Origin: an uncultured Alphaproteobacteria bacterium
GTDB taxonomy: Bacteria > Pseudomonadota > Alphaproteobacteria > DATDPM01
Direction of reading: 5' to 3'
Assembly (NCBI GenBank): GCA_963841995.1
Contig: CAWJEX010000003.1
Coordinates: forward strand, 154,081-218,080
DNA length: 64,000 bases
Each line of letters opens with the position of its first letter. The stretch's first letter is position 1. The notes below the pieces were generated by a model. That model ran no database searches and was not told the DNA's origin. It was given only the letters and a program-made list of their open reading frames with translations. Of this stretch, positions 2,017 to 46,309 are shown one piece after another. Both the position numbers and the translations under genes were made by a program.

Positions 2017-2624
2017 CGTCGTTCCTCCTGCTCCCCTTCCCCTACTTGTCCACTGGCGCCTATTTGTCCATCGGTGCCATGAGATCGGCCAAATTTTCCC
2101 GCAACGTTCGCCGGGCCCGGACCAGCAGCGATTTCGATCGCCCCCACGCTGATCTCGAGAATCTCCGCCGCCTCGATATTGCTCACGCCTTCGAAATGGC
2201 AGAGCGTCAAGGCTGTGCGTTGACGGTCCGGCAATTGGGCAATCGCCGTTTGAACCCGGCGCGAGGTTTCGTTCGCCGCCAATATCTCGAGACCGTCCGG
2301 CTTCGAGTCCGCGATTTCGCCCGCCGCTTCGATCGGCGCCGGCGTCGGCTTCCGGGTGCGGTCGATGCAGAGATTCATGAGCACCCGGTAAAACCAGGTC
2401 GAAAACCGGGCACCGCCCTCGGCTTCGGGCTGCCACTCGGGAGCCTTGAGCCAAACCCGCAAAAACGCCTCCTGCACCACATCTTCCCCTTCGGCCTTGT
2501 TGCCAACGACCCGGGCGGCGAGCTTGCCCGCGTTAACCAGATGCCGTTCGACCAGTTTGGCAAAAGCCGCGTGATCGCCGGTACCCGAAAGCCGCATGAG
2601 CTCGTCGTCGGAACGTTCGTCCAT
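2013..2624 (-). CDS. ECF (sigma-70 family) RNA polymerase sigma factor with an aberrant C-terminus from an apparent +1 frameshift at ~2131-2135
   Basis: Regions 2 and 4 of sigma-70 are recognisable ('VQEAFLRVW...', 'LPDRQRTALTLCHFEGVSNIEAAEILEISVGAIE'). The canonical end of region 4.2, 'SKSLLVRARRTLRENLADLMAPMDK*', is encoded in the adjacent frame and stops at 2060. The annotated frame instead gives a Gly-rich 39-aa tail. Confidence 0.75.
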   Translation of the reverse strand: MDERSDDELMRLSGTGDHAAFAKLVERHLVNAGKLAARVVGNKAEGEDVVQEAFLRVWLKAPEWQPEAEGGARFSTWFYRVLMNLCIDRTRKPTPAPIEAAGEIADSKPDGLEILAANETSRRVQTAIAQLPDRQRTALTLCHFEGVSNIEAAEILEISVGAIEIAAGPGPANVAGKFGRSHGTDGQIGASGQVGEGEQEERR

Positions 2625-2750
2625 GGGCGATTCGGACCTAATGATTTATTCACGGAAGCGTGAGCGATTCCCTGCGCCGGCAATTACGCCGGGCGGGCGC
2701 CCCAGACTAAGGTTAATCGGGGATTAAGAAAATCCCGGGTTTGGAGGGGG

Positions 2751-3398
2751 CTAATTAGGCTGGGCGTCGGGCAATTTGCCGCCACCGGGCTGGCTGGGGG
2801 CAGGCTTGGCAGCGGGCGCCACAGGTGCCGTGGTGCTGACTGGCCGAACGCCAGGGGCGGCCACCGGGACGGCCGCCGGGGGTGCTACCCTGGGCGCTGT
2901 CTCGGCCTCAGTTTCGATCTTGGCCCAATTGGCGTCGGCAGTTTCGATAAATCCCTCGATTTCGGCCAACCACTGCTTTCTTACCGCCTCGGACGTATTG
3001 AGATAGAGCTTGCCGTCGAGGATCGTCCAAATCGTGGGATCGGCTACGGCCGGGGCGCCTTCGGCGACCGCATAGGCCGAATAGCCGCCGTATTGCGGCG
3101 CGTATTTCTCGGGCTTGGCCTTAAAGGAATCGCGGTGAGTGGGATCCGAGAACAGCCACGTTGCCCCCGCCCATTGATAAGCAAATTCTTTCGATCCCGC
3201 CTCGGCGTGGCCGTCGGCGAAATAGGCGACCGGGTCGTAGCCCTTTATCGCGACATTGTCGGCTCCCGACACGCTGATGTTGGATATGCCGTTCGGGGAG
3301 CCAGCAGCGGCTTGGCCAACCGCCATCAGCACTACGATCGCAGCGATGGCCGCGAGCTCGTGATCCCGCCGCAAATTAATCATGATCGGAAACTCCAC
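2751..3398 (-). CDS. secreted YHS-domain protein (putative metal-binding)
   Basis: It has a signal peptide and a YHS motif ('AIKGYDPVAYFADGHAEAGSKEFAYQWAGATWLF'). The C-terminal tail is Pro/Ala-rich. Confidence 0.6.
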   Translation of the reverse strand: MEFPIMINLRRDHELAAIAAIVVLMAVGQAAAGSPNGISNISVSGADNVAIKGYDPVAYFADGHAEAGSKEFAYQWAGATWLFSDPTHRDSFKAKPEKYAPQYGGYSAYAVAEGAPAVADPTIWTILDGKLYLNTSEAVRKQWLAEIEGFIETADANWAKIETEAETAPRVAPPAAVPVAAPGVRPVSTTAPVAPAAKPAPSQPGGGKLPDAQPN

Positions 3399-3579
3399 TT
3401 ATTGCACCGGCCTATGACCGCCGCTTTCACCTTGTATAGGAATGGGCCTCCGCCCGAAGACAATCAACACCTCCGGGTCTTTGCGGAATAGCCGATCCAT
3501 CAATAGGCGGCCTGGAAATATAACACGGGCCTGAAAAACCGGCCGCGACGGTCCACGCTTATCGCCGCGTCGAGCGGAA

Positions 3580-37931: not shown

Positions 37932-39065
37932 TTATGATAGCGCGGCGATTTTTCCGGCGAGAAAAACGTGGGTGCAACGAAGGCGCTTCGCTTCGGCCGT
38001 CGGCTCAATTTCTTCCAATCCGCAAACCGTTATCCAGCCTTCGCGACGAAGACGCTCCGCTTCATCGAGCGAAATTCCCACCGGCACAAAGACTCGCGCC
38101 CGCGCTTCGCCGCGCGGCAACGAATCGAGCACCGCATCGACAAAGAGGGTCGCCCCCGTCGCCGGTTCTCCTCCTGCGCGATAGCGCCCGCCCCGTCCCA
38201 TTTCGCCACGCGCACCATTGGCGAAAAGCGTGAAGCTCATGCCGCTGTGGTATTCGAAGCCGCGATGCTCGACCGGATCGATGGTGAGCGAGAGCGCCGG
38301 CATCGCCTTGGCAATTCGCGCCGCACCCTCGGTCAGCCGCCGGCACTCGGCAGCGGCAGACTCGGGCAAACTTAGTCGCGACAATGTTGCCAGCGCCAAC
38401 TCGGCGGGGCCCGATGCGCCGAGCAATTTCAGAAGTATCGGCGCCGCCGAGCCCCCTGCGGCGGCAACGCCGGCGGCGTCGCGGCGGTTGAGCGCAGCCT
38501 TGATTCGCGTTTCGGCATCGCTGGACAGCCCGGAGGCAGCGCAGACCGCGGGAACGAGCGTCGGCATGGTGAGATCGGCGGAAAGACCGTTCACGCCAAC
38601 CGATTCGAGGGCAGACACCGCAAGGGTCACGATTTCCACATCGGCCGCCGCCGAATCGGAACCCATCAGCTCGATCCCGGCTTCGGTGAATTGGCGCTCG
38701 GGGCGAAGCTGGGTTCCCTTCACCCGCAAAACCTGGCCGGCATAGCAAAGCCGGAGCGGACGCGGCGCATTGGCCAGCCTCGTCACGGCGATGCGGGCCA
38801 CCTGCACCGTCATGTCGGCGCGCACCCCCATCATGTGCTGGGACACCGGATCCATCAGGCGGAAGGTCTGGCTTGAGGTCGCAGCACCCGCGCCTGAAAG
38901 CAGGCTGTCCTCGAATTCGACCAAGGGCGGATCGACCTGCTCGTAGCCGTGGCTCTCGAAACAGGCCAAGAGCTTGGTCAGCGCCAGGGACGCGAACGCC
39001 GCATCGGGCGGCAGCACGTCGCGCAGGCCGGCCGGCAAAAGCGCCTTGTTCGAGACCTCGTTCAT
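37932..39065 (-). CDS. hisZ: ATP phosphoribosyltransferase regulatory subunit HisZ
   Basis: It has the class-II aaRS-like fold motifs ('[10 protein letters not shown]', '[11 protein letters not shown]') and HisZ length. Confidence 0.85.
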
Positions 39066-39184
39066 CTCATGTCCATGTAATTGGTTATGGCTAAAAAGGT
39101 TACGGCGCTGCCCGGGAAGGACAGCGCCTTGTTGCCCCCGTTGGTAGCGATTTTAGCCGCAAACGGCAACCGATACGATGGCAC

Positions 39185-40348
39185 TTAAAGTCCTGGTTCA
39201 GTGGTCTCAAACGCCCAATCCAGCCAGGCCGGAAGGGCTGAGATATCCGCCAATTCCACGGTTCCGCCGGTCCAAACCCGAAGCCCCGGCGGGGCCGTCC
39301 GGTAGGCATTGATGTCGAAGGCAACACCTTCGGTCTCCAAGAGGCTCGAAATCGCTTTGGCCCGGGCGCGCTTTTGGTCTTCGCCCAACCCCTTCAGCCT
39401 TGAGCCTTCAAGACACATGGAGACAGGTGTTGTGGGCCGGATTTCCGGACGTTGCGGCAGCTGGGCGACCCAATCGCATTGGCTGATCCATTGGTCCAGG
39501 ACCGCGCGATTGGCCTTGGCCCTTTCGATCATCCCGCGCAAACCGCCGATCGATTCGATCCAGGCGAGCGAGAACAGTGCGTCCTCGACGCAAAGCATCG
39601 ACGGCGTGTTGATGACGCCGCCTTCCCACAACATCGGATCGAGCTGGTTGTGTTTTTTCAGCCGGAACAGCTTCGGCACCGGCCAGGCCGGCGTGTAACC
39701 CAGTAATCGTTCGATGGCACGCGGACCCAAGACCAGCATCCCGTGCTGAGCTTCGCCGCCCATCGCCTTCTGCCAGGAAAATGTCGCGGCATCGAGAAGG
39801 TCCCAGGGAATATCCGCCGCGAACACCGCCGCCGTCGCATCGCAGATCGTCAGGCCCTGCCGGGTGTCCGGAATCCAATCGCCGCCGGGAACGCAAACAC
39901 CGGCGGTCGTGCCGGTCCAGGGAAAAACCAGATCCCGCGCCGGATCCCAGCGCGACAGATCGGGCATTTCGCCATAGCAGGATTTGAGCACCCGCACATC
40001 GGGAAGCCGGAGCTCGTCGATGGCGTCCCGCGCCCATTCCTGGCCGAAATAGTCGAAAGCGAGAACGTCCAGCCCGCGCGGCCCCAGCAGATTCCACATC
40101 GCGGCTTCGATGGCGCCGGTGTCGGAGCCGGGCAGAATCGCGATCCGGTGGCTTTCCGGAATCCCGAGCAGCGCGCGGGCTTTCGTCAGCAGCTCCTGCA
40201 GCCGCGCCCGTCCCGCTTCCGAGCGGTGATAGCGCCCGGTCAGCGCCGCGGAAAGCTTGGATGCCTCCCAGCCCGGCGGCTTGGCACAAGGCCCGGAAGC
40301 GAAATGCGGATTTGCCGGCCGGACGGCGGGTTTCGGAGGGTGCGTCAT
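39185..40348 (-). CDS. serC: phosphoserine aminotransferase (SerC, short archaeal/alphaproteobacterial type)
   Basis: 'NPHFASGPCAKPPGW...SHRS..G...' matches the short-form SerC N-terminus. A class-V aminotransferase fold follows. Confidence 0.8.
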   Translation of the reverse strand: MTHPPKPAVRPANPHFASGPCAKPPGWEASKLSAALTGRYHRSEAGRARLQELLTKARALLGIPESHRIAILPGSDTGAIEAAMWNLLGPRGLDVLAFDYFGQEWARDAIDELRLPDVRVLKSCYGEMPDLSRWDPARDLVFPWTGTTAGVCVPGGDWIPDTRQGLTICDATAAVFAADIPWDLLDAATFSWQKAMGGEAQHGMLVLGPRAIERLLGYTPAWPVPKLFRLKKHNQLDPMLWEGGVINTPSMLCVEDALFSLAWIESIGGLRGMIERAKANRAVLDQWISQCDWVAQLPQRPEIRPTTPVSMCLEGSRLKGLGEDQKRARAKAISSLLETEGVAFDINAYRTAPPGLRVWTGGTVELADISALPAWLDWAFETTEPGL

Positions 40349-40533
40349 GGGGGGAATAACTTCGATGCGGGCGGTCAGAATATCAATGCCCATTCGAGCG
40401 CGGTAGGCGTGAGAATCCGGATCGTGGGCCGTGGATCAGTTTCGGCGCGATTGTGCGGCAACCGGCACGGTTTCAGAGTAAAATTTACAAGACTTCTCAA
40501 TTGTATCGTATTTCCAACGATGAGCGGGTTGCC

Positions 40534-41100
40534 ATGGCGCGTCTCCCGAAATCACGCAGGCCGGTCGCAATGAAAGATCTGCCCTTGTCCAAGGTCTACC
40601 AGCTGCTCGAACCGGGCCCGGTGGTTCTGCTGACCACCGCCCGTAAGGGCCGCGCCAATGTCATGACGATGTCCTGGCATATGATGGTCGACTTCGAGCC
40701 GCCGCTGGTCGCCTGCGTGGTCAGCGGCGCCAATCACAGCTTTGCCGCGTTGCAGGCGACCGGGGAGTGTGTGATCGCGATTCCGGCGCGGAAGCTGGCG
40801 CCGATTGTGGTCAACGTCGGCAACTCATCGGGTCGCGACATCGATAAGTTCGACGCGTTCGGTCTGACCCCGGCGCCGGCCGAGCGCGTGGCGCCGCCTC
40901 TGGTGGCAGAGTGTTTCGCCAATCTCGAATGCAAGGTGACGGACCCGCGCTTCGTCAACAAATACAATCTCTTCATCCTTGAGGTGCTTAAGGCCTGGAT
41001 CGATCCGGCGCAGAAGAATCCCAAAACCATCCACCATCACGGCTACGGCACGTTCGTCGTGGATGGCGAGACGATCAAGCTGAAATCCAAGATGCCGTGA
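40534..41100 (+). CDS. flavin reductase-like (FMN-binding split-barrel) family protein
   Basis: 'VVLLTTARKGRANVMTMSWHMMVDFEPPLVACVV' is the signature of the flavin reductase-like domain. Confidence 0.7.
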   Translation: MARLPKSRRPVAMKDLPLSKVYQLLEPGPVVLLTTARKGRANVMTMSWHMMVDFEPPLVACVVSGANHSFAALQATGECVIAIPARKLAPIVVNVGNSSGRDIDKFDAFGLTPAPAERVAPPLVAECFANLECKVTDPRFVNKYNLFILEVLKAWIDPAQKNPKTIHHHGYGTFVVDGETIKLKSKMP

Positions 41101-41359
41101 TGCGCGCCGTCAAAGACTTCGGGCCTCGCAAGGCGGATGAGCCTGCGCTTCGAACAAGGCCCGGAGGCGAAATGCGGATTAGCCGGCCGGACGGCGGGTT
41201 TTGGTGGAGTGGTCATGCAGCGAAGATATCTGAGTGATAGTCAGATTATCACCGCGTTTATGATAGCTGTAGGTGTCAGAGAGATGACGGATTTGACCAA
41301 AGGTGGACCTAGCCAACTCAACGTCTTAACGCAATTGAAACGCAACCTAACAACGAAAC

Positions 41360-41997
41360 ATGACCGACCAGAGTCTAGTCGATCGAGCAAGTGAGATTCT
41401 TGAGAGCGCTAAGCTTCTCGACGCCGCCGTCGTAAATGCCCACGCTTTTTGGATGTTGTTAGGCAACCTAGTCGGACGTCCGCTGATTGCAGGGAAGACC
41501 CACACGCGAAAGCGTTGGATATGGCGCGGGCCGCAATCTTGCGAGCAGAAATTAGTGTACTGATGGCAATCCTCGATCCTGCAGATTGGCGAGGTAATCG
41601 AGCGAGTATTGGGCATATCGTAAAGGAGCTAAGAGACGAGCGGCTCTGGGCCCTCCTGCTATCGCGCCGCGAGGGTCAAACAGTGACCCGAAACGCGGCA
41701 AAACTCGCAGAGTTACAGAAGGGCTACAAATGCGTATGTGAAAACGAGTTACTTCAGCGCGTTAAACGATCACGAAACGATTCAATCGCGCATCTTCTCA
41801 GACCCGACATACCAACGCCATCCGTGGAACTCGCCGACGTTTTTTCTCTTCAAAATGAAGCAGAACGGCTCGTGATAACTTTGTTTGAAGGATTAGGAGG
41901 CGGCGAGCCTCAATTTATTGCTGCTCGGGAATCGATTCTTACAAGGGCTGAATTGTTTTGGGACACGTATTTTACTGGGATGCGACGATCGACATAG
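41360..41997 (+). CDS. hypothetical protein in a low-GC islet (frameshifted; possible HEPN-like Rx4-6H motif)
   Basis: The ORFs 41360..41563 and 41449..41997 overlap in different frames and read as one ~210-aa protein. 'RNDSIAH' fits Rx5H. Local GC is clearly lower than in the flanks. Confidence 0.35.
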
Positions 41998-42079
41998 ATT
42001 ACGCCAAATCTCAAACCGCCCCACCGCCAGACCTCGATCCCGCTTGACCCACCCTTCCTCCCGTTCCACCATGCCGGTT

Positions 42080-44085
<2,006 letters not shown>

Positions 44086-44124: not shown

Positions 44125-44940
44125 TTATTTTTTCGCGGAAGTCTTTAGGGTGTGGCCGTGATTGATCGGCCCGAAGCCGCTGCCGAATTGCGGCGCCGAG
44201 CGAATAGCCTCAAGGACGTAATTTCTCGCCCGCACCACCGAATCGCGGATGCTCATGCCTTGGGCCAGGCTGACCGCGATCGCCGAAGCCAGCGTGCAGC
44301 CCGTTCCATGGGTATGACGGGTGTCGAGACGCGGGCTTTCGAAGACTTCGAACCCGTTTTCATCGTGCAAGATGTCGTGGACGACATTGCTGCGCTCGCT
44401 CCGCAGATCCCCGCCCTTGAGCAGAACCGCCTTCGGTCCCAGGGTGTGGATCATCTCCGCCGCGTGTTTCATGTCGTCGAGGTCGCGAATCGTCATGCCG
44501 GTCAGGGCCTCGGCTTCGGGCACATTGGGCGTTGCCACCGTGGCGTCGAGAAGCAAGACGCGCTTGAGGGTTTCGAGGGCCGAGTGCTTGAGAAGCTGCC
44601 GGCCGCCCTTGGCGATCATCAACGGATCGACGACGATGGGAATCCGCGACACCAAGGGGGCGATAATCTGGCCCACCGCTTCGATGATGGCGGCGGAGTA
44701 GAGCATGCCGGTTTTGATGCAATCCGCGCCAATATCCGAAAGCACCACCTCCATCTGCTTCGTCACGATGTCGACGGGAATGCAATGGATGGCGTGAATG
44801 TCATGGGTGTCCTGCGCGGTGACCGCGGTGATCGCGGTCGCGGCATAGCCGCCCAGCGCCGTCACGGTCTTGATATCGGCTTGGATTCCGGCGCCGCCGC
44901 TCGAGTCGCTGCCGGCGACGATAAGAACGCGACCTTTCAT
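44125..44940 (-). CDS. thiD: hydroxymethylpyrimidine/phosphomethylpyrimidine kinase ThiD
   Basis: 'VLIVAGSDSSGGAGIQADIKT' and the ribokinase-like fold. Confidence 0.9.
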   Translation of the reverse strand: MKGRVLIVAGSDSSGGAGIQADIKTVTALGGYAATAITAVTAQDTHDIHAIHCIPVDIVTKQMEVVLSDIGADCIKTGMLYSAAIIEAVGQIIAPLVSRIPIVVDPLMIAKGGRQLLKHSALETLKRVLLLDATVATPNVPEAEALTGMTIRDLDDMKHAAEMIHTLGPKAVLLKGGDLRSERSNVVHDILHDENGFEVFESPRLDTRHTHGTGCTLASAIAVSLAQGMSIRDSVVRARNYVLEAIRSAPQFGSGFGPINHGHTLKTSAKK

Positions 44941-44950
44941 CGAGATTTCC

Positions 44951-46309
44951 TCAGCTGGCCGCGCGCTCGATCGCGCGCTCGATCGCGCGCAAGACCTCAT
45001 CGATGACCGTGCCGACCATGTCTTCGTCGTCGCCTTCCGCCATGACGCGAATGACCGGTTCGGTGCCCGATTTGCGGATCAAAAGCCGGCCCCGGGTGCC
45101 CAAGCGTGCTTCGCAATTCCGGATCGCCGTCCGCACCGCATCCGATTCGAGCGGCTGGCCGCCATTGACCCGGACGCTGCGGAGCATTTGCGGCAAGGGC
45201 GTGAAAATCCGGCAGACTTCGCTGGCCCGGCGGTTGGACCGCACGATGGCGCTCAGCACCTGAAGGGCCGCGATCAAGCCGTCGCCGGTCGTCGAATGAT
45301 CGGCGAGAATGATGTGTCCCGATTGCTCGCCGCCGATGTTGAGGCCGTGGCGGCGCATATGTTCCACCACATAGCGGTCGCCGACCTGGGTGCGCGCCAG
45401 ACCGATGCCAATCGATTCGAGATAGCGCTCGAGCCCGAGATTGGACATCACGGTCGCCGCCACCGCGCCGCCCTTCAAGCGGTCGGATTGCTGCCAGGTT
45501 TGCGCGACCAGCGCCATGATCTGATCGCCGTCGAGAGTCGCGCCGTTCTCGTCGGCGAGGATGACGCGGTCGGCATCGCCGTCCAGCGACAGGCCGAGAT
45601 CGGCGCCGTGCATCACGACTTGCTGCCGCATTAACTCGGTATCGGTGGCGCCGCACCCTTGATTGATGTTGAAGCCATCGGGATCGACGCCGACCGGAAT
45701 GACTTCGGCCCCGAGCTCCCACAACACGGTGGGCGCCACGCGGTAAGCCGCACCGTTGGCGCAGTCGATGACGATCTTCAGGCCGTCGAGACGCAGGCCC
45801 TTCGGGAAACTGTTTTTGACATATTCGATATAGCGCCCTTGGGAATCGTCGAGGCGCCGGGCGCGGCCCAATCGGCCGGGGGTGGCGAGTTTTTCGGTGA
45901 CGCCGGTGGCGACCCGCTTTTCGATTTCATTTTCGACCGCATCCGACAGCTTAAATCCATCGGGACCGAATAGCTTGATGCCGTTGTCTTGATACGGATT
46001 GTGGGATGCGGAAATGACGACGCCGAGATCGGCGCGGAGCGAACGCGTCAGCATGGCAACCGCCGGTGTCGGCAGCGGCCCGACCAGGACCACGTCCATG
46101 CCCATCGAAATGAACCCGGCGGTCAGCGCCGGCTCCAGCATATAGCCGGAGAGCCGGGTGTCCTTGCCGATGACGGCGAGATGGCGGTGGTCGCCGCGAA
46201 TGAAATGATGGCCCGCGGCCTTGGCAACGCGGAGCGCCGTCTCGGCCGTCATGGGCTCGACATTGGCGGTGCCGCGGATGCCGTCGGTGCCGAAGAGTTT
46301 TGAGCGCAT
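44951..46309 (-). CDS. glmM: phosphoglucosamine mutase GlmM
   Basis: 'LFGTDGIRG' and the active-site '[10 protein letters not shown]'. The C-terminus has a 12-bp tandem duplication giving '[10 protein letters not shown]'. Confidence 0.95.

Follow-up and report, generated by a model that had tools for sequence, protein, structure and literature searches.

Integration of DNA at the end of a gene is familiar from phage 21 and e14, which integrate in the 3′ end of icd. Genomic islands at the 5′ end of dusA depend on a dedicated tyrosine integrase encoded beside the att site and on a fixed, semi-conserved core of 21 bp, and these islands measure tens of kb (PMC4482086). In Vibrio cholerae, effector-immunity modules of the type VI secretion system have been displaced sequentially, and Rhs loci contain arrays of orphan 3′ ends, for which homology-facilitated illegitimate recombination (HFIR) has been proposed (PMC5361080). 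HFIR has been described in Streptococcus pneumoniae, Acinetobacter baylyi, Pseudomonas stutzeri, and in Escherichia coli conjugation (PMC3240628 and references therein); its joints lie in microhomology of 3-10 bp, and about 1 kb is inserted (PMC3240628). The commonest products in the E. coli study were lacZ duplications of 109-950 bp, which arose by single-crossover integration of a circular fragment (PMC3240628). Here, we compare with these systems a locus in a 64,000-nt stretch of DNA from an uncultured alphaproteobacterium (contig CAWJEX010000003.1, positions 154,081 to 218,080; hereafter the window), in which the 5′ end of serC, encoding phosphoserine transaminase, is present twice, on either side of a flavin-reductase gene (flr). 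The second copy is probably the relic of a displaced serC start, left by a known class of recombination in the course of ordinary genome turnover, and similar relics were found in two related lineages.

A repeat search returned one two-copy direct repeat, 40279-40356 against 41147-41224 (78 nt, 83% identical, spacing 868; BLAST E 1e-18 for the pair), and no third copy was found anywhere in the 64-kb window. The original prediction, made from the letters of the window, had described a repeat of some 66 bp of the serC 5′ end that brackets flr. This was borne out, with a core (40285-40350 and 41151-41217) of 86-89% identity, and 86% identity over serC codons 1-23. The homology reaches further than predicted, as patchy similarity continues upstream of both ATGs to about -66; within it lie a 12-nt box (TTGATATTCTGA in copy A and GTGATAATCTGA in copy B, 10/12 identical) and a colinear block at about -66 to -52 in which 12 of 15 positions agree. 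The repeated unit is therefore about 135 nt rather than 66. The longest exact stretch common to both copies is 20 nt.

Copy A (40279-40414, minus strand), as delimited by the repeat search and by upstream homology to copy B and to relatives, comprises serC codons 1-23 (40280-40348) and the region upstream to about -66, with the box at about 40375-40386. It is the start of an intact serC gene encoding 387 aa (39185-40348, minus strand), which we call allele A. The product of this open reading frame (ORF) scored above cut-off with both NF002841 (552 bits) and TIGR01365 (491 bits), is the serC_2/PRK03080 equivalog, and has an identical counterpart in GCA_049280315.1. Copy B (41147-41282, minus strand), or allele B, consists of codons 1-23 (41148-41216) and an upstream remnant, with the box at about 41241-41252. 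It still encodes a serC-like start on the minus strand, as had been noticed: the ATG is retained, and 21 of 23 residues (MTTPPKPAVRPANPHFASGPCSK) are identical to those of the genuine gene (MTHPPKPAVRPANPHFASGPCAK), after which the frame continues antisense to the flr 3′ end. A 57-codon ORF (41043-41216) is this continuation of copy B.

All related contigs, like the window, are from metagenome assemblies, and two of them (L161 and L154) are from one sample with two serC alleles. A chimeric join of two co-occurring strains at the conserved serC start was considered on these grounds, and we regard it as the least probable of the explanations discussed here. A 5.5-kb contig (JBAPPV010000421.1) of the metagenome-assembled genome GCA_049280315.1, referred to as L081, contains both copies and is 99.945% identical to window positions 38024-43527, with 3 mismatches in 5504 nt, none of them within the repeats. 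As the structure recurs in this independent assembly, it is not confined to a single one. Moreover, two strains joined at homologous positions would yield a normal serC rather than the truncated copy seen here next to the 3′ flank of flr, and exact stretches of at most 20 nt are too short to mislead an assembly at k=141. The 3 differences lie at 41624, 38313, and 38398, one of them inside the AbiU2 pseudogene described below.

The differences between the two copies are informative about their origin. Over codons 1-23, 10 of 69 nt differ, 7 of these at third positions. The proportions of synonymous (pS) and non-synonymous (pN) differences are 0.39 and 0.059, respectively (pN/pS 0.15), and the two amino-acid differences affect residues 3 and 22, both of which also vary among orthologues. 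Copy B has kept its ATG and reading frame; although divergence at synonymous sites amounts to 39%, the 69 coding nt contain no indel. When all changes were simulated as neutral, the probability of two or fewer amino-acid changes was 0.0004. It was 0.014 when the simulation modelled an in-place duplication with neutral decay of the relic and silent changes only in the working copy, for which about 10 non-synonymous differences are expected and 3 are observed. The synonymous divergence of 0.39 is as large as that over serC between the window and L001 (0.32), the nearest relative known and the sole close one in the genome collection (SerC 86% identical; all others at most 56%). The third-position bias, the few amino-acid changes, and a synonymous distance of this size make the copies look like two alleles that diverged while both worked, and not like a decayed target duplication.

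We think it probable, though with modest confidence, that copy B is the stranded upstream region and codons 1-23 of an earlier resident serC, which was displaced by recombination with DNA from a related lineage. In the incoming DNA, an flr module would have been linked to that lineage's own version of the serC upstream region and 5′ end, perhaps with additional serC sequence. On one side, it would have been taken up by homologous exchange within serC or in the conserved genes beyond. On the other, the flank 63 nt downstream of flr would have been joined illegitimately to the resident serC at about codon 19-23, where some 17 nt show imperfect microhomology. In this way, flr would have been gained and a complete serC with its promoter (allele A) kept, while the dead 5′ fragment (allele B) would have been retained beside the content that earlier lay upstream of serC, namely the AbiU2 pseudogene and the thiC riboswitch. 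We infer that B was the resident allele, that the homologous crossover lay on the serC side, and that the structure arose in one event. When serC was compared in sliding windows with L001 and with a metagenome contig of a related lineage (L153), no crossover could be located. Synonymous distance to L001 rises from thiD (0.15) through thiC (0.26) to serC (0.32), and is uneven within serC (0.19-0.64), which hints weakly that serC allele A may be the newcomer. Codons about 281-340 (window 39330-39510) stand out with a synonymous divergence to L001 of 0.64, against 0.19-0.43 elsewhere in the gene, suggesting that this segment could be a mosaic patch from another lineage within the working serC.

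The flavin-reductase-like gene expected between the repeats was recovered with a clear family match (PF01613, E 2.8e-31). The flr coding sequence (40570-41100, plus strand) specifies 176 aa, as it is also called in L081; another start upstream, at 40534, gives 188 aa, and an exact-protein look-up with this 188-aa form returned no match. The gene is part of a module (40461-41163, plus strand) made up of a promoter region, the coding sequence, and ~63 nt downstream, which was defined by block homology to a Logan contig, L159 (SRR18214449). Window positions 40461-41161 align to L159 1169-1868 at 87.9% identity (blastn; 701 nt, both flanks included). In L159, flr (96% identical at the amino-acid level) lies between a CN_hydrolase gene and an ORF (277 aa, 2073-2906) for a putative ABC-2-type permease-like protein. 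The shared block begins around the CN_hydrolase start codon and stops 61-63 nt beyond the flr stop codon. Judged by this alignment, the window carries a ~700-nt piece lifted from an L159-type context. Adjacent flr and serC genes are unique to this organism among the relatives examined; elsewhere, flr is found beside an Oxidored_FMN gene in L160 and L162 and beside CN_hydrolase in L159. The composition of flr is host-like, with a GC content at third codon positions (GC3) of 81.9%, compared to 74.5% for serC and 77% for thiC.

At 41147-41163 (unstranded), the homology to the flr flank and that to serC codons 19-23 overlap over ~17 nt, making this stretch a candidate microhomology joint. The window reads GCTTCGAACAAGGCCCG here, L159 reads GGTTTGAGCAAGACCGG, and copy A reads GCTTGGCACAAGGCCCG. 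Compared to L159, 12 of 18 positions are identical, continuing the ~72% identity of the flr 3′ flank; compared to copy A, 15 of 17 positions are identical over 41147-41163, or 16 of 18 over the 18 nt used in the comparison with L159.

Two side observations concern the module. At 40461-40475, ~11 nt of the divergent L159-type CN_hydrolase start seem to survive with a mutated ATG, as a second tiny gene relic. Homologues of flr that are 85-96% identical occur in >120 protein clusters from varied Alphaproteobacteria (Bradyrhizobiaceae, Xanthobacteraceae, Rhizomicrobium), while SerC of the same organism drops to ~55% identity outside its small clade; the flavin reductase is either unusually constrained or recently spread between lineages.

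A different origin of the structure would be an insertion in place, in which a ~700-nt flr fragment from the same genome entered by template switching during replication or break repair and duplicated ~135-180 nt of target, so that the copies were identical at birth; later allelic replacement may have helped. Relative to the L159 context, the flr module has a breakpoint at each end, as a small fragment moved from elsewhere would; upstream homology between the two copies appears to reach about -66, and the composition of flr resembles that of the host. The uneven synonymous divergence of serC to L001 (0.19-0.64) also makes mosaic recombination in the working copy plausible. An in-place duplication would be excluded if copy B lacked the ancestral sequence upstream of about -41, but the colinear blocks to about -66 remove this argument. 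However, without a step of allelic replacement, the shortage of non-synonymous differences reported above (3 against ~10, P 0.014) is improbable, and the lack of any indel in the 69 coding nt at such synonymous divergence fits poorly with a decaying relic. We consider an insertion in place rather unlikely, though it deserves more weight than any of the other alternatives to displacement of a resident serC.

The original prediction had gone on to explain the repeat as foreign DNA inserted at the serC start with a long duplication of the target. Part of this stands: DNA was added at the serC start, flr was found there in no relative examined, and the low-GC stretch beyond copy B is foreign. The rest does not agree with the data, as the repeat does not resemble a target duplication (10/69 nt, 7 at third positions, P about 0.014), the bracketed DNA is native-like (GC3 82%), and the foreign low-GC DNA lies outside the repeats. 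Neither a transposase, an integrase, nor terminal inverted repeats were found in 40349-41146, where the Flavin_Reduct ORF is the sole one bearing a known family, and the repeat search detected no inverted repeats at 40357/41146 or 40461/41163.

Several further mechanisms were rejected on these and similar grounds. Target-site duplications typically measure 2-14 bp. A duplication made by a transposon or insertion sequence was discarded on account of the length (78-135 nt), identity (83-86%), and third-position bias of the repeat, and of the missing transposase and terminal inverted repeats. Simple tandem duplication was rejected as well, since the AbiU2 pseudogene upstream of copy B and flr between the copies show no similarity. 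An integron cassette was set aside because no integrase gene was found; this basis is weaker, as no attC search was made.

Support for the displacement of a resident serC came from relatives in which a second serC start is present. In a tblastn scan, 2 of 157 serC loci contained one, namely the window's own contig and L153 (European Nucleotide Archive [ENA] ERZ27247939 k141_638056), and a third case, L161 (ENA ERZ27248000 k141_1204580), was found afterwards. L153 and L161 are both metagenome contigs of the 72-77% clade of relatives. L153 contains a 166-nt direct repeat (313-478 and 2939-3104, 77% identical) from -59 to codon 36, and its order is relic, hybrid histidine-kinase gene (PAS/HisKA/REC), and intact serC. 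The relic has a stop codon and a pN/pS of 0.66. Its first 21 coding nt are identical to those of L161 serC, and it has a CTCTTTC-type upstream block, as do its nearest relatives (L161/L155). The intact serC of L153 differs from the relic at 5 of these 21 nt and has a CTCGAAT-type block, as does window copy A, whose upstream homology to the L153 serC upstream region extends to about -73 (P 0.0005, shuffling). By these blocks, the L153 relic and the adjacent working serC are visibly different alleles. Such a difference in allele type between relic and neighbour is not given by duplication in place, which again speaks against insertion in place. A short way upstream of the L153 relic, positions 1-114 encode the C-terminal end (WRIDYNTKRPHTSLNGLTPTEF...) of a likely IS3-family (rve) transposase, a family assigned from motifs alone, followed by ~200 nt of AT-rich DNA that borders the relic.

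L161 is a nested case. The 3′ part of the same kinase as in L153 is followed by a serC relic (1073-1285), a fragment of a thiamine pyrophosphate (TPP) riboswitch (1336-1377), a cytochrome P460 gene (1447-2007), and an intact serC (2365-3537). The relic extends to about codon 50 and is frameshifted by a 1-nt deletion. The riboswitch fragment (42 nt) is 93-97% identical to the sequences in L001 and L081 and has no thiC beside it; an Rfam search of L161 found no complete riboswitch at this site. The relics thus end at different points in serC, at +69 (codon 23) in the window, about +108 (codon 36) in L153, and about +150 (codon 50) in L161. These scattered ends, together with the differing cargo, argue against a fixed integration site or crossover point.

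The same loci invite an explanation by site-specific integration, in which small cassettes, each with a replacement serC promoter and 5′ end, would be inserted by a recombinase encoded elsewhere, and repeated captures would produce the nested relics. A remnant 5′ end, cargo, and a restored gene form the architecture of the dusA islands (PMC4482086), three lineages carry different cargo, L161 looks like accretion, and a stretch of 20 nt is identical between the window copies. No integrase was found in any of the three cargos (window, L153, and L161) or their immediate flanks, however, and the relic ends do not share a crossover core. In the window, the joint falls within sequence homologous to the native flank of flr rather than within an att-like sequence, and the rarity of a second 5′ copy in the scan (2/157 loci, with L161 found later) also counts against a dedicated system. 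We therefore view site-specific integration as very unlikely. No greater probability is given to the more specific idea that the serC start is a dedicated capture site for integrase-less cassettes, each of one gene and a replacement serC promoter and 5′ end, which a recombinase or nuclease encoded elsewhere would insert serially in an integron-like accretion. Promoter-bearing relics might in that case be retained for antisense or read-through transcription of the captured gene.

The region between thiC and serC was compared with that of relatives, as had been proposed, and its content proved variable; no relative was found with flr in the same place and without a repeat. In L001, thiD, thiC, and the riboswitch are colinear with the window down to 42042, and serC is colinear up to 40371. 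The interval between them contains an MBL-fold (metallo-β-lactamase) hydrolase gene and a low-GC ORF of 231 aa, and neither flr, AbiU2, nor the repeat was found in L001. A relative at 68% (L156) has thiC, an 84-aa ORF, a CitMHS transporter gene, and then serC, while in the 77% clade sensor kinases are encoded between thiC and serC. As the gene content differs in every relative, the thiC-serC interval is a variable spot bounded by conserved genes, a pattern that exchange anchored in those conserved flanks would produce.

Beyond copy B, a low-GC stretch with a frameshifted ORF had been predicted. It spans 41259-42041, with 51% GC compared to 61.5% for the window and a GC3 of 46%, and it holds a frameshifted pseudogene of the AbiU2 family (HEPN; 41360-41997, plus strand) that lies outside the repeats. 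The ORF at 41449-41997 matches PF18734 (E 4.9e-7); the ORF at 41360-41563 aligns to the N-termini of AbiU2 homologues of 208-220 aa, and the second ORF to the remainder. Homology to L001 resumes at 42042, beyond the low-GC stretch. The best AbiU2 homologue is just 66% identical. This low-GC DNA is foreign, and is a separate matter from the DNA bracketed by the repeat. The 231-aa ORF of L001 (5136-5831; 45-53% GC) is the immediate upstream neighbour of serC there, placed as the AbiU2 pseudogene is relative to copy B in the window, and it has no Pfam or PADLOC match. PADLOC likewise returned no match for the AbiU2 ORF or for flr.

A number of points weigh against the displacement of a resident serC. 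Its statistical case rests on 69 nt (P about 0.01), and a two-step history, in which any kind of duplication was followed by ordinary allelic replacement of the working serC, gives the same pattern. The microhomology was judged against L159, a proxy and not the true parent, and both supporting relic loci are single metagenome contigs. No genome was found with an intact B-type serC beside AbiU2, nor one with flr next to serC allele A and no relic, and the closest SerC is 86% identical. A scan of metagenome contigs with SerC yielded nothing above ~60% identity over >85 residues, the higher values (up to 78%) being N-terminal fragments of 23-33 residues, and the AbiU2 homologues (at most 66% identical, on tiny contigs) gave no recoverable B-type serC context. 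Since no parental-type genome was found, we infer the parentage of the two alleles. Finally, over the 26 nt that separate the conserved box from the ATG, copies A and B are ~40% identical, which is far below the coding part and below the comparison of copy A with L001. This spacer is much more diverged in copy B than among orthologues, which our model does not predict. Selection to silence a relic promoter pointing into flr could explain this divergence, but that is a guess only.

The box itself is conserved. In the form TTGATATTCT it was found in all relatives of the 72-77% clade, ~27-38 nt before the serC ATG; it lies at 40375-40386 and 41241-41252 in the window, and at the same position in L153, L161, and L155. 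It is followed by a T/A-rich hexamer and then by only ~6 nt to the ATG, with no Shine-Dalgarno sequence. This arrangement suggests a -35/-10 promoter with a leaderless serC mRNA, and a relic that has kept its box might still fire antisense into flr. A scan of 40200-42300 with sigma-70 and terminator consensus sequences detected none above shuffle expectation, and none at either serC upstream region.

In the ORF list, hisZ (37932-39065, minus strand) and thiD (44125-45000, minus strand) lie on either side of the locus, and thiC (42265-44085, plus strand) matches PF01964 (E 8e-188). The thiC riboswitch that had been expected after the low-GC stretch is a TPP riboswitch (42076-42209, plus strand; Rfam RF00059, 61.8 bits, E 1.6e-10), and forms the right-hand border of the variable interval.

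If copy B is indeed what remains of a displaced serC, the locus is a clean natural footprint of how the border of a core gene may take up new genes without the machinery of a mobile element. The conserved gene would serve as the anchor, the incoming DNA would have to bring a working start, and the old start would persist as a fossil of the earlier allele, one that can be dated. The presence of three fossils of this sort within a single small clade, including a nested one, suggests that the thiC-serC interval turns over repeatedly by the same route. If this is true, a search for relics of this kind could allow such events to be counted and dated in uncultured bacteria. As regards annotation, the 57-codon ORF should be treated as a gene fragment and not as a gene, and the repeat should not be taken as the marker of a mobile element.

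Among the described systems, the dusA islands resemble this locus in that the insert supplies a replacement gene end with mostly silent differences, and what remains of the original end forms a direct repeat. An island of this type was nevertheless rejected: although the replacement 5′ end and the remnant match, both the integrase beside the attachment site and the fixed core are missing, and the cargo is one gene. The Vibrio cholerae modules offer a parallel, as newcomers anchored in conserved flanks displace the resident, push its remnants aside, and build arrays through repeated events, of which the nested relics of L153 and L161 keep the same record. There, 3′ ends and immunity genes are under selection, whereas here the 5′ ends and upstream region of a housekeeping gene are concerned; the cargo genes are unrelated to each other, and nothing suggests that the relics are useful.

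A Campbell-type single crossover would likewise duplicate the shared segment directly around the insert, with one copy truncated, and the ~135-nt repeat and 868-bp spacing fit such a product. It would require a circularised fragment of ~870 bp and a crossover within ~135 nt of ~75-86% identity, however, which should be inefficient. HFIR differs from our case in that the latter is read from a natural footprint and was not observed, in that the joint lies inside the resident copy of the anchor gene and so leaves a 5′ relic rather than a clean deletion, in a candidate microhomology (~17 nt, imperfect) that is longer than the usual 3-10 bp though of the same kind, and in a donor that was apparently a related lineage rather than unrelated DNA. 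As in HFIR, homology in a conserved gene would have resolved one end of the incoming DNA in the proposed displacement, and a candidate illegitimate joint at microhomology the other, with ~1 kb of new DNA and no need for mobile-element genes, and here the incoming and resident sequences appear to be different alleles (pN/pS 0.15, P 0.014; the L153 relic compared to its neighbour). HFIR would be expected to give the outcome seen at this serC start, and single-crossover integration of a circularised fragment would give the same product, the two being indistinguishable here.

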